Shown piece after piece: positions 11,603-38,482 of a stretch of DNA of 64,000 nt (positions within the stretch are counted from its first letter, which is position 1; the number at the start of each line of letters is the position of its first letter). The translations under genes and the position numbers were made by a program. Under the pieces are notes generated by a model. It searched no databases and was not told the DNA's origin. It saw only the letters and a program-made list of their open reading frames with translations. Origin of the DNA: Sulfolobaceae archaeon (GTDB lineage: Archaea > Thermoproteota > Thermoprotei_A > Sulfolobales > Sulfolobaceae); the NCBI GenBank assembly GCA_038893355.1, contig JAWARQ010000001.1, positions 224,001 to 288,000 on the forward strand, read 5' to 3'.

Positions 11603-12954
<1,352 letters not shown>

Positions 12955-20183: not shown

Positions 20184-20723
20184 TTAGAAATATTTGTTAA
20201 TATCAAAGATACGTTCTTGAATTCCTTTTCTCTTATTTGCGACTATTGCCATTATGAATAATAAAGAAGAGAGTCTATTTAAATAAATTAAAATATTATT
20301 ATTAATAATATTTATATTATCTTTTATATCTTTTTTTAATTTTACAAATTCTCTTTCAACTCTTCTCACGACAGTTCTCGCAATATGTAATATCACTGAA
20401 ATTTCACTACCACCCGGTAATACAAAAAGTTTAACTGGTCCACTCTCTTTCCTATATTTTATAATCCTCTCTTCTAACCACTTTATATCATTTTCAGATA
20501 TTTTATTTGATTTACCTAAGATATCTTGCCCAATTTTGAATAGGTCTTCTTGTACTTTCATCAGATCTTCAGCGATATCTTGCCATTCTGACTTTACTAT
20601 TGCATATCCAATAAATGCACTTGCCTCATCTAATTCTCCGAGGAAATTAACAATTGGTGAATCCTTACTAACTCTTTTATCCCTAATACTAGTTGTACCA
20701 TCATCGCCTTTTTTAGTAAACAT
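20184..20723 (-). CDS. PduO-type cob(I)alamin adenosyltransferase
   Basis: [38 protein letters not shown]. Confidence 0.93.
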
Positions 20724-20773
20724 TATTCAATTTTTAAAAATCATAGATAATAAGAATTGTGTGGTGAGAAACA

Positions 20774-23626
20774 ATAAGTCAGCCAGCTGATTTCGTTGAG
20801 TTTTTAGTGAAAATCTCTGAAAAATGGCAGAAGGAATGGGAAAAAGCAAAGATTTTTGAAGCGAATCCAGTTAGAGGTAAAAAGAAATTTTTTACGACCG
20901 TAGCATTTCCGTATCCAAATAGTCCTTTTCATTTAGGCCATGGTAGAACGTACGTTACTGCTGATATTTATGCAAGATATATGAGAATGAGGGGTTATAA
21001 TGTACTTTTCCCCATGGGATTTCATTATACTGGTACCCCGATAATAGCAATGGCTGATGATATAGCAAGGGGTGATAAAGAATTAATAAGTATATTTAAG
21101 GAAATATATGAAATACCAGATAATATAATAACTAAACTTACAGATCCATTATTTATGGCAAATTACTTTAAAGAGGAAATAAAATTAGCTATGAAGGAAA
21201 TAGGGCTGTCAATAGATTGGAGACGAGAGTTTACAACAATAGACCCAGAGTTTTCTGCATTTATTACATGGCAGTTTTTAAAATTACATGAAAAAGGATA
21301 TATTGTAAGGGACACTCATCCAGTTGGATGGTGCCCAGTTCATCATCTTCCAGTAGGGATGCACGATACAAAAGGCGATGTTGAGCCAGAAATAGGCGAA
21401 TTTGTTTTAATTTATTTCCAAGATGATGATTTAATATTTCCAGCAGCTACATTAAGGCCGGAAACTGTTTTTGGTGCTGTTGCTATTTGGGTAAATCAGA
21501 ATCAAGATTATGTTATAGCTGTTATTGACGGAAAGGAAATGGTAATCTCTGAGAAAGCTGCTAAAAAACTTTCATTTCAAATAGATGATCTCAAAATACT
21601 TAAGAAGATCAAGGGTTCAGAATTAGTAGGTAAGTATGTTATAAATCCGTTAAGTGGAAAAAAGATACCTATTTTACATGGAGAATTTGTAGACGTTATG
21701 ACTGGAACTGGTGTTGTAATGAGTGTTCCTGCGCATTCGCCAGTTGATTATTTTTATTTAAGGAAATATAAGAAGGGTGATACAATTATTAAAGTAATAC
21801 AAGTTGAGGGATACAATGAGCCACTAGGTAAATTTGTTGTAGATAATAACGAACCAAAGACTGACGAGGATCTTAAGAAATTAACTGAATTTGTTTATAG
21901 GACTGAATATAATAAAGGTTTTATAATCTCTGAAGTTTTAGAATTAATAGATATTAAATATAAAGAAAAACTTAAAGAGATTATAAATAAGCCTGTCCCA
22001 GAAGCTAGGCAAATAATTACTAACTTTCTTATTTCAGAGGGTCTCGGAAGGAAGATACTAGAAATAATGAATAGACCGGTTTATTGCAGGTGCGGAAATG
22101 AGGTAGTTGTTAAGATATTAAAGGATCAATGGTTTATAGACTATGGTAATAAAGAATGGAAAGAAAAAGCCAGAAAGTTATTATACTCTATGAGAATTTA
22201 TCCAGAGGAAGTTAGAAAAGATTTTGATTTTGTTATTGATTGGTTACAGAAAAGGGCATGTGCAAGAACTAGGGGTTTAGGTACTCCTCTAATTTGGGAT
22301 AAAAAATGGATTATAGAAAGTTTAAGTGACTCTACGATATATATGGCATATTATACAATATCACATAAAATAAAAGAGTATAAATTGAGACCATCACAAC
22401 TAACATCAGAATTTTGGGATTACGTAATTCTCGGTCTAGGTGATATAAATGAGATTTCAAAGAAATTAGACATTCCTATACAAATTCTAGAAGATTTAAG
22501 AAGAGAATTCTTATACTGGTATCCGCTAGATATTAGGCATAGTGGAAAGGATCTAATTCCTAATCATTTAACATTTTTTATATTTAATCATGCTGCATTG
22601 TTCCCAGAGGAATTATGGCCTAAGGCTATAGCAGTTAACGGCTTTGTGCTTTATGAAGGTAAGAAGATGAGTAAATCATTAAGAAACATAGTACCACTCA
22701 GAAAGGCAATTAAACAATATAGTCCAGATGTAGTAAGAGTAGTATTAACTTCAACTGCAGAGCTAGGTTCTGATACTAATTTCTATGACTCTTATGCTAG
22801 ATCATTCGTTGAAACTCTAAGGAGATTTTACGAATTAATTAAGAAATCTAAAGATTATAATGGTAATATTTATGATTATCCTGAAAAAATATTGGAAAGT
22901 AAATTAAATAGTTTTATAAAAGAGATAGCTAAATATATGGATGAATTAAGTTTGAGAGAGAGTATGAATAAACTATTTTATGAATTTTATGATTTAATAA
23001 GATTTTATTTTGAACTAGTTCAAGCTGAAGGAAGAGAGCCTAATAGAAACGTATTAGCTAAAGTTTGGAATAAATGGGTAAGGATGATTGCACCGTTTGT
23101 TCCTCATTTTGCAGAGGAGTTATGGAGAGAATTAGGTAATACAACATTTGTCTCCTTAGAATCATGGCCTGAAATTGAAGAAGAGAAAGTCGATAAGAAT
23201 TTAGAATTGATGTTAGAATATCAACAAAAAGTTTTAGAAGATATTAAATCAATACTTAATATTTATAAAGGAATTCCTAATTCTATTAGAATTTATGTTA
23301 GTGATGAATCACAGTTTAACGAATTAAAAAATATAATTAAAATGATAAACGAAGGAAAAACTCTAAAACAGATAATAGAAACCTTGAAACCTTCAAATGT
23401 AAGAATTTATCAAAGGTTATACAACTATGCATTACAACTTGATGAGAAGATGAAGAAAATTTTAGAATATAATATAAATGAAATTGAAGCACTACGCAAA
23501 ATGATTCCACTTATAAAAATAAGGTTTAATGTTAAGGACGTATACGTTTCAAAGTTTACAGAAGAGGAGAAGAAGAAGTATAATAAGGAGGCTTTGCCAT
23601 TAAGACCAGCTATTATTATTGAATAA
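20774..23626 (+). CDS. leuS: Leucine--tRNA ligase; start possibly ATA 20774 (ORF track uses GTG 20807)
   Basis: [12 protein letters not shown] (HIGH), KMSKS, CP1 motifs TLRPET and [15 protein letters not shown]. Confidence 0.97.
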
Positions 23627-37329: not shown

Positions 37330-38482
37330 ATGGATTAATCCCTCTAATTGGATATACCTCACCATCTTCATATACTACCTTTCCTTGAACTATCGTCATG
37401 TAGACTAATGCATCTAATGGGTAACCATCAAAGGGGGTTTGTGTTACCTTAGAATATCGAGTGGAATATCTCCATCTTTCAAATTTTATTACAGTAAAAT
37501 TAGCAAAATAGTTTTTCTCAATTTTTCCATACTTTATATCAAGAATTTTAGCTGGATTTAAAGAAATTAATTTTATTGTGTTTTTAATATCCAATATACC
37601 TTTTTTTACCAATGAAAACAAGAAAGGTACAGTAAATGAAATAGCCGCAATACCAGGCGGGCATAGCTCAAAGTCCTGAACTTTTTCCCATTTAGCATGT
37701 GGTGCATGATCGCTAGCAACAGCATCTGCCTCAAATAATGCTTTAAGTAATTCGAATCTAGTTATATTATCCCTAATAGGCGGGTTAACCTTTGTTAAAC
37801 AGTCTTTTTCACCATTAATTAAAATATGGTGTGGAGTAACATCTGTGGTTAATCCTAAATTTTTAGCTAATTTTAATGTATAATAATTAGTTATATGTGT
37901 TATATGAATTTTTGTAAATTTGTTATCGGAGAATAATATTCTTAATGGTGCTAATTCCATCCATATACTTCTAAATTTTCTAAATACCTTATTTGCCTTC
38001 ATGATTTCAGAATGTATTACTTTCAATTTTTTACTCTTTAGTACTGAATATAATTCATCTTTCTCTAAATCTTCTGGGTATATTTTATACCCTGCAATTG
38101 GTAATTTATCAATTTTTTCAGTCTCTTTTCCTACTCCTGCATATATACCAAAATCTGTTCTAGAATAGTTTTCAAATTCTCTTAATCTTTCAATAACTCT
38201 TTCATACGTTATTATAGGCGGAATAGTATTTGGCATATCTACTACTACAGTTATTCCACCATAGGCTGCTTCACTTGTTGCTGTAGCTACAGTTTCTTTA
38301 TAGCTTAATTGAGCACCTCTGACATGTACGTGCATATCTATAGCACCAGGTAAAAGGATTGTGGATTGAGGAAGACTAATATCAGGTTTACATTCTTTCT
38401 TTATATTCCTAATTATTCTATCAAATTCTATACAAATTTCTTCTATTTCGTCATTATAGAAAGCTTTACCTCTTATCCACAA
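37301..38482 (-). CDS. pyrC: Dihydroorotase
   Basis: DMHVHVR, DMPNT, PHH, KVNPPIR, SDHAPH. Confidence 0.96.

Follow-up and report, generated by a model that had tools for sequence, protein, structure and literature searches.

A candidate AUA start codon for leucyl-tRNA synthetase in a Sulfolobaceae archaeon, and apparent conserved non-canonical starts in other core genes of the family

The leucyl-tRNA synthetase (LeuRS) gene of a Sulfolobaceae archaeon, leuS, very probably begins its translation mainly at AUA, at position 20774 of the stretch analysed here, and not at the canonical GTG that annotation would give it. This stretch, called the window throughout, comprises 64,000 nucleotides of contig JAWARQ010000001.1 in GenBank assembly GCA_038893355.1 (positions 224,001 to 288,000 of the forward strand; G000:C1:224001-288000 in the handles used below), and the genome it belongs to, G000, is a draft of 17 contigs that is 83.8% complete. 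A preliminary description, made from the letters of the window, had proposed the AUA start, and comparison of the homologous codon across 25 genomes of the family supports it well. The favoured reading is of near-cognate initiation driven by the ribosome-binding site. Beyond leuS itself, other core genes of the Sulfolobaceae appear to carry conserved non-canonical starts in the same setting, and this wider pattern is a more interesting result than the single gene.

The leuS start region and its homologues

The arrangement at the 5' end of leuS is compact. A Shine-Dalgarno (SD) core, GGTGA (20763-20767), is followed by the spacer gaaaca (20768-20773), by ATA (20774-20776), by the codons AGT CAG CCA GCT GAT TTC GTT GAG TTT TTA, and then by GTG (20807-20809). 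The preliminary description had placed the ATA in the LeuRS frame 6 nt after a perfect SD, which matches the sequence exactly. Because the TGA at 20765-20767, inside the SD core, is in frame with the LeuRS open reading frame (ORF), no upstream start is possible, as had also been claimed. Between that stop and 20807 there is no in-frame ATG, GTG or TTG, and GTG 20807 is the first canonical in-frame start, 11 codons 3' of the ATA. It had been described as lacking a clear SD; the sole match ahead of it is a GAG some 9-11 nt upstream, and there is none of the GGTG type. The features of the region, all on the plus strand save the divergent neighbour, are as follows.

20731..20739, plus strand: TATA-like A/T-rich box TTTTTAAAA, the presumed leuS promoter (from the sequence and the A/T boxes of orthologues)
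20763..20767, plus strand: SD core GGTGA, complementary to the 3' end of 16S rRNA and present as GGTGA or GGTGG in the orthologues with ATH (H being A, C or T)
20765..20767, plus strand: in-frame TGA that closes the frame upstream (from the sequence and the ORF list)
20774..20776, plus strand: ATA, the proposed LeuRS initiation codon (from homologous codons in 25 family genomes)
20777..20806, plus strand: putative N-terminal extension, the ten codons between the ATA and the annotated GTG (from codon conservation)
20807..20809, plus strand: annotated start GTG, the earliest canonical codon in the frame (GTG at this place in 1 of 25 genomes)
20774..23626, plus strand: predicted LeuRS coding sequence, 950 codons and a stop (from Pfam domains, HLGH and KMSKS)
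20184..20723, minus strand: divergent neighbour, a gene of the cobalamin adenosyltransferase family (from the ORF and Pfam PF01923, E 3.2e-49), its ATG 50 nt from the leuS ATA

Taken by itself, an ATH codon behind an SD means little. The window holds 28 copies of GGTGA-N5-7-ATH; 100 shuffles gave 16.1 +/- 4.3 and never as many as 28, and with a string this common a single occurrence proves nothing. What stands above chance is the position of the ATA, third in an open frame of 952 codons (950 codons and a stop when counted from the ATA), together with its conservation in relatives.

The identity of the gene is clear enough from its product (P0001), which on its signatures and domains is classed as a class Ia leucyl-tRNA synthetase of the archaeal type. 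It carries the HIGH and KMSKS signatures (HLGH at residue 55, KMSKS at residue 633) and the Pfam domains PF00133 (tRNA-synt_1, E 3.7e-35), PF13603 (LeuRS editing domain, 1.2e-12) and PF08264 (anticodon-binding, 1.3e-26), and its N-terminal 142 residues match the Pyrococcus horikoshii enzyme 1WKB (E 2.4e-35). It is the orthologue of UniRef entries named 'Leucine--tRNA ligase 2', and the closest named proteins are those of Sulfurisphaera, Sulfolobus, Stygiolobus, Acidianus and Metallosphaera. A paralogue in the same genome (contig C4) has a GTG start and both signature motifs; its N-terminus is about as long as that of the window LeuRS and shares its F-x-x-I-x-x-KWQ segment. One of the two Sulfolobaceae LeuRS paralogues is reportedly inactive. 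Distant LeuRS structures were tried as arbiters of the N-terminus and set aside; P. horikoshii LeuRS has 7 residues ahead of the aligned segment, a length that falls between the two candidate starts.

Evidence on the start codon comes from relatives. The LeuRS protein was found in all of 40 related genomes that were searched with it, and 5' ends were read for the 30 best loci; of these, 25 belong to the family itself, with G000 included in its 14 genera, and 5 to further families of the order. Among the 25 Sulfolobaceae genomes the codon that corresponds to ATA 20774 is ATT in 12 cases, ATA in 5, ATC in 2 and ATG in 6. An SD-like motif lies 5-7 nt upstream of that codon in 23 of the 25: GGTGA or GGTGG stands there in all 19 ATH orthologues, GGTG or GTGA is found upstream in four of the six ATG genomes, and the remaining two show no such motif. 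Ten of the ATH rows (L004, L007-L011, L014, L017, L018 and L021) are without an earlier canonical start, their first canonical in-frame codon lying 34-54 codons after the W of KWQ. HLGH is at +35 to +38 from that residue, and the first canonical codon is one codon before HLGH in three of these ten and beyond it in seven. With a canonical start the protein would lose HLGH or keep no more than one residue in front of it; a non-canonical start therefore seems unavoidable in those species, the obvious candidate being the ATH that follows the SD. For one of the ten, L004, the orthologous ATT region (L004:1150-1950) is reproduced without a differing letter by RNA contigs in four runs from four studies; this check, made on L004 alone with 4 of 24 runs, each a single assembled contig of 16-25 kb that gives neither a 5' end nor a strand, only confirms the letters.

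The ten codons between the ATA and the annotated GTG behave as coding sequence. When codons are counted back from the invariant Trp in the 25 genomes, Phe is found at -11 in 24 (TTC in 12, TTT in 12), Leu at -7 in 24, written with six different Leu codons, and Phe at -8 in 18. The codon right after the ATH or ATG is a Ser codon, AGY in some and TCN in others, in 18 of 25, which fits a conserved second residue. Such synonymous-only variation at the conserved Phe and Leu argues for a protein segment under purifying selection, and the conservation of the extension in the family, which had been proposed as a check on the AUA start, comes out in its favour. Codon -6 tells the opposite story for the annotated start. 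This codon, GTG 20807 in the window, is GTG in this genome alone of the 25; 14 have AAT or AAC and the rest vary.

Public gene models of LeuRS are inconsistent over the same region, with entries that start at five different codons. The NCBI entry P0004 begins MSAKEFVDFL, which is the translation of L007 and L010 with ATT read as Met. The S. acidocaldarius entry P0011 (UniRef/NCBI) starts at another ATT, 11 codons downstream, as checked against its locus L004, and the remaining entries start at CTG, at TTG, or at a GTG inside the SD.

The history of the codon was traced on a maximum-likelihood tree of 30 LeuRS proteins; the start codon of the outgroup row L026 is poorly assigned and was left out of the counts. 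A single clade of 22 rows (support 100/99) takes in every one of the 19 ATH genomes; it holds 12 genera, 11 with ATH and one, g3, with ATG, the latter nested beside ATT genera. The other two ATG genera, g9 (L025) and g11 (L023, L024), stand at the base of the family. This placement implies that the ATH start arose once and lasted through at least five changes of the third base, one of them to G. In the two g11 orthologues an A/T box lies 20-22 nt before the ATG and one of the two is without an SD; unlike the SD-led ATH core clade, their arrangement looks leaderless.

The same architecture in other genes

On present comparisons, the AUA of leuS would be one case of a wider Sulfolobaceae habit that is not tied to branched-chain amino-acid genes. 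In a strict scan of this genome, 48 of 1157 long ORFs had the TGA of a GGTGA as their upstream limit. The codon 6 nt after that GGTGA is canonical in 25 (ATG 13, TTG 8, GTG 4) and ATH in nine (ATT 6, ATA 3), so that ATH makes up 9 of the 23 non-canonical codons here, compared with 31 of 273 when six control positions are taken together (one-sided Fisher p = 0.0012). A genome-wide scan for the motif had been suggested at the outset as a search for functional enrichment; the excess is there, although only in the strict set, the genes it brings out are functionally unrelated, and the overall signal is modest. By Pfam the ATH candidates (L031-L040) are TrpE, topoisomerase VI-A, an Mre11-like phosphoesterase, TruD, two alcohol dehydrogenases, FEN1, the TATA-binding protein (TBP), a protein phosphatase and a methyltransferase, and in several the first canonical codon comes only after the Pfam domain has begun. 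In those listed other than FEN1 and TBP, the ATH of G000 follows GGTGA at 6-7 nt, and the next 13-49 codons include no canonical start.

FEN1 is uniform in the family. In all 24 family genomes with a match (L094-L117; in this genome G000:C5:96340-97401, minus strand) the codon is ATH (ATA 17, ATC 6, ATT 1); it aligns with the universal Met-1 (MGV) of archaeal FEN1 and is preceded, at a distance of 1-3 codons, by a stop. In S. solfataricus, the FEN1 that was crystallised (2IZO) begins five residues later and is without the five N-terminal residues that align to the MGV start. For TBP (L044-L060; G000:C5:29602-30195), 16 of 17 family genomes show ATH at 5-6 nt downstream of GGTGA or GGTGG, with an in-frame GTG in the SD still a possible start in 8 of those 16. 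Several TBP orthologues have a TATA-like box with its end only ~10 nt ahead of GGTGA, and on that geometry their transcripts would start near the ATH. This placement could mean that the promoter is of another kind, or that TBP acts on its own leader. Mre11 was considered as a further conserved case and rejected, its ATT being confined to this genome (1 of 25). Two Mre11 orthologues of genus g7 (L119, L120) have the start region GGGGTGA-GTAAG-ACG with no ATG nearby, and may begin at the in-frame GTG of the SD or at the ACG codon. Within the window itself, an ATC 5 nt after GGTGA at 37353 (minus strand) heads a 299-codon frame; canonical in-frame codons 3, 4 and 6 codons upstream leave this case ambiguous.

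Branched-chain amino-acid metabolism enters the question through ilvC, also in the window:

12596..12608, minus strand: ilvC SD (GGTGA) and ATA (12598-12596), from orthologue comparison

The string GGTGAGAAATATA occurs once, at 12596-12608 on the minus strand. Across 19 genomes the homologous start codon is ATA in 4, ATG in 5, TTG in 6 and GTG in 4, and a stop directly before the codon fixes its position in 6 orthologues; the AUA start of ilvC is thus well supported by comparison. The likeness between the leuS and ilvC contexts, to which the preliminary description had drawn attention, holds as far as the ilvC string and its ATA are concerned. The GAGAAA that both genes share after GGT is not conserved in orthologues, where the spacers differ, and appears coincidental. 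The further suggestion, that the two AUA starts reflect selection tied to branched-chain amino-acid genes, finds no support, since the same SD-plus-ATH arrangement is found at FEN1, TBP and other unrelated genes. Nor are all the branched-chain aminoacyl-tRNA synthetase genes unusual, for valyl-tRNA synthetase has TTG 7 nt after GGTGA.

Isoleucyl-tRNA synthetase (IleRS) is a different matter. In this genome the gene (1054 aa; L143, G000:C1:180870) lies outside the window and lacks a canonical start near the N-terminus. In 19 of 24 family genomes (L143-L166) an invariant TTA followed by a Ser codon stands exactly 6 nt after GGTGA or GGTGG; the other five (g9, g13, g14) have ATG or GTG near the same position, and in L162, L163 and L166 that ATG or GTG is exactly 10 codons before a conserved Tyr or Phe. 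UUA is therefore an apparent start codon of IleRS. As a post-hoc observation this leans toward the branched-chain idea, and a start of LeuRS at a codon for Ile, paired with one of IleRS at a codon for Leu, might reflect cross-sensing of the two amino acids. A second ORF outside the window, of 233 codons at G000:C1:161787, likewise has a TTA 6 nt after a GGTGA whose TGA bounds the frame.

Proposed initiation at AUA and the alternatives

How the AUA of leuS might be used can be pieced together from the promoter, the ribosome and the tRNAs. The main A/T box upstream of leuS ends 32 nt before ATA 20774. In 16 of the 19 ATH orthologues the strongest box ends 26-34 nt before the start codon; in the other three the corresponding distance, for the longest A/T run, is 19 nt in L011 and 39 nt in L019 and L020. 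Given the promoter spacing of Sulfolobus, such positions would fit a short leader, with the transcript starting at GGTGA or 1-2 nt before it. The leader of the mRNA would then probably be very short, ~11-13 nt, with its first base at or beside GGUGA. The 3' end of the 16S rRNA of this genome, ...GGATCACCTCA, is complementary to GGUGA in an exact match, and this pairing would place the codon 6 nt downstream in the P site. ARAGORN found 41 tRNA genes in the 84%-complete genome, three of them with the anticodon CAU. Of the three, one shows the initiator features A1-U72 and a GGG/CCC anticodon stem, one is an intron-bearing elongator, and one resembles tRNA-Ile, its acceptor stem being like that of the single tRNA-Ile(GAU). 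No initiator-like tRNA with an anticodon other than CAU is among the 41. The ordinary initiator Met-tRNA (CAU) would thus be accepted on AUA despite the mismatch at the third base, and it is the simplest reading because ATT, ATA, ATC and ATG interchange at this codon.

Several observations weigh against initiation at the AUA, or against its generality. The genomes compared are relatives and not independent samples, and the counts given above overstate their independence. In five ATH orthologues (L002, L003, L006, L019 and L020) an in-frame GTG inside the SD itself leaves a canonical start possible. GTG 20807 could be the start in this genome, or a second start. A second and weaker A/T-rich stretch (20743-20754), ~26 nt upstream of the ATA, would put the transcript start near the ATA and GGTGA outside the mRNA. 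Lastly, a loose scan of the 1157 ORFs (GGTGR and 5-7 nt, first 60 codons) showed no excess of ATH, with 48 cases against 45.7 expected (p = 0.38); with canonical codons excluded the value was p = 0.043.

Translation from GTG 20807 as annotated, with 20768-20806 as an untranslated leader, deserves the most serious hearing among the alternatives, and it is nevertheless unlikely. It has in its favour a canonical archaeal start that is the first in frame, and an S. acidocaldarius entry, P0011, which starts at the homologous position. In the matching locus L004, however, that start is an ATT and hence also non-canonical, and the annotated codon itself is peculiar to one genome and is not preceded by a GGTG-type SD. 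The protein-level constraint on the ten codons upstream and the similar N-terminus of the paralogue in the same genome likewise speak against it.

Somewhat less probable still is a leaderless mRNA beginning at the A of the ATA, a reading in which GGTGA would serve not in ribosome binding but as a promoter-proximal element of the DNA. The weaker A/T-rich stretch has the spacing such a transcript would call for, and the close TATA-like box of several TBP orthologues points the same way. The strongest box in most ATH leuS orthologues, however, lies where a transcript start at GGTGA would be expected, and the geometry of a leaderless promoter is met in the two g11 orthologues, which carry ATG. Moreover, GGTGA is an exact match to the anti-SD with its spacing held at 5-7 nt, and leaderless starts, in the available text of reviews, are described as AUG, GUG or UUG.

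Very improbable is a dedicated route in which AUA is initiated by the agmatidine-modified tRNA-Ile2 or another elongator tRNA, giving a protein that starts with Ile. A CAU tRNA with an acceptor stem like that of tRNA-Ile(GAU) is indeed present, and the placing of LeuRS on an Ile codon and of IleRS, apparently, on a Leu codon would suit a device of this kind. The agmatidine-modified tRNA reads AUA only, however, and not ATT or ATC; the link to it that the preliminary description had raised is a misfit for a position at which orthologues interchange all three codons and at which ATG substitutes in g3 within the same architecture. Nor does the set of 41 tRNA genes offer an initiator-like tRNA for the task. 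That the ATA is an assembly or sequencing error for ATG, as a draft genome might invite one to think, is scarcely credible given ATH at this codon in 19 of 25 family genomes, many of them single-contig assemblies, and RNA contigs that confirm the ATT of L004.

A broader proposal can also be made. A core clade of Sulfolobaceae would have a start recognition relaxed at the third base on SD-led mRNAs, and a fixed set of essential genes, FEN1, TBP, LeuRS and IleRS, would be held non-canonical by selection as a control point of aIF1/aIF2 fidelity, an archaeal counterpart of the AUU of infC. This proposal is tentative and, on balance, doubtful. An infC-like autoregulatory loop on the gene of aIF1 itself was considered and is ruled out by that gene's plain ATG in this genome.

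Significance and known systems

If true for LeuRS, FEN1, TBP and IleRS, a conserved AUH start, and possibly a UUA start, would extend current accounts of archaeal initiation, which name AUG, GUG and UUG. Many public gene models would then be shortened or inconsistent, gene finders for Sulfolobaceae would need to admit ATH starts behind strong SD motifs, and the family would offer a natural system for the study of codon checking by aIF1 and aIF2 at high temperature. S. acidocaldarius and S. islandicus are genetically tractable, and the question of the start codon is thus directly testable.

Archaeal initiation is divided into SD-led and leaderless classes in a 2020 review (PMC7531240) and a 2025 structural paper (PMC11698992), and the available text of both names only AUG, GUG and UUG as start codons, with no AUU or AUA and no non-AUG or near-cognate category. 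The leuS start resembles the canonical SD-led model mRNAs of S. solfataricus in its GGUGA-type SD, its short spacing and its group of organisms, and differs from canonical archaeal SD-led initiation in its codon, AUH here and TTA at IleRS. No description of AUH starts in cellular genes of Sulfolobus was found in the searchable literature, subscription papers and supplements being outside its reach. The nearest archaeal reports are of other kinds. In the available text of PMC6080066, ORFs C34, A49 and D60 of fusellovirus SSV10 are annotated with CUG, AUU and AUA, and in that of PMC7261190 ~30% of putative alternative initiation sites in Haloferax volcanii ribosome profiling are near-cognate. 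The former are annotation choices and the latter unfiltered calls that their authors set aside, whereas the leuS case would be a conserved start of a core cellular gene, supported by comparison across genera. Closer in theme is the haloarchaeal leuA paralogue HVO_1510, whose conserved N-terminus lacks a canonical start in several species and for which leucine-dependent translation has been speculated (PMC8305020, as far as its available text goes). Like leuS it is an archaeal leucine-related gene with a suspected atypical start; it differs in gene and lineage, its candidate start is a CTG or a frameshift, and it has no SD-plus-ATH arrangement.

A further comparison is with bacteria. AUU in the mRNA of IF3 (infC) is described as the classical near-cognate start in the available text of PMC4705826, and aIF1 is cited in that of PMC6237735 as discriminating against non-canonical starts in S. 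solfataricus. Like infC, and like the AUU, AUA and AUC starts of Escherichia coli, the leuS start would be an AUH behind an SD at the head of an essential translation gene, kept across species. Unlike infC, it would operate in an archaeon, with the eukaryote-type factors aIF1, aIF1A and aIF2 and a non-formylated initiator Met-tRNA, and at a codon where three ATH triplets interchange.

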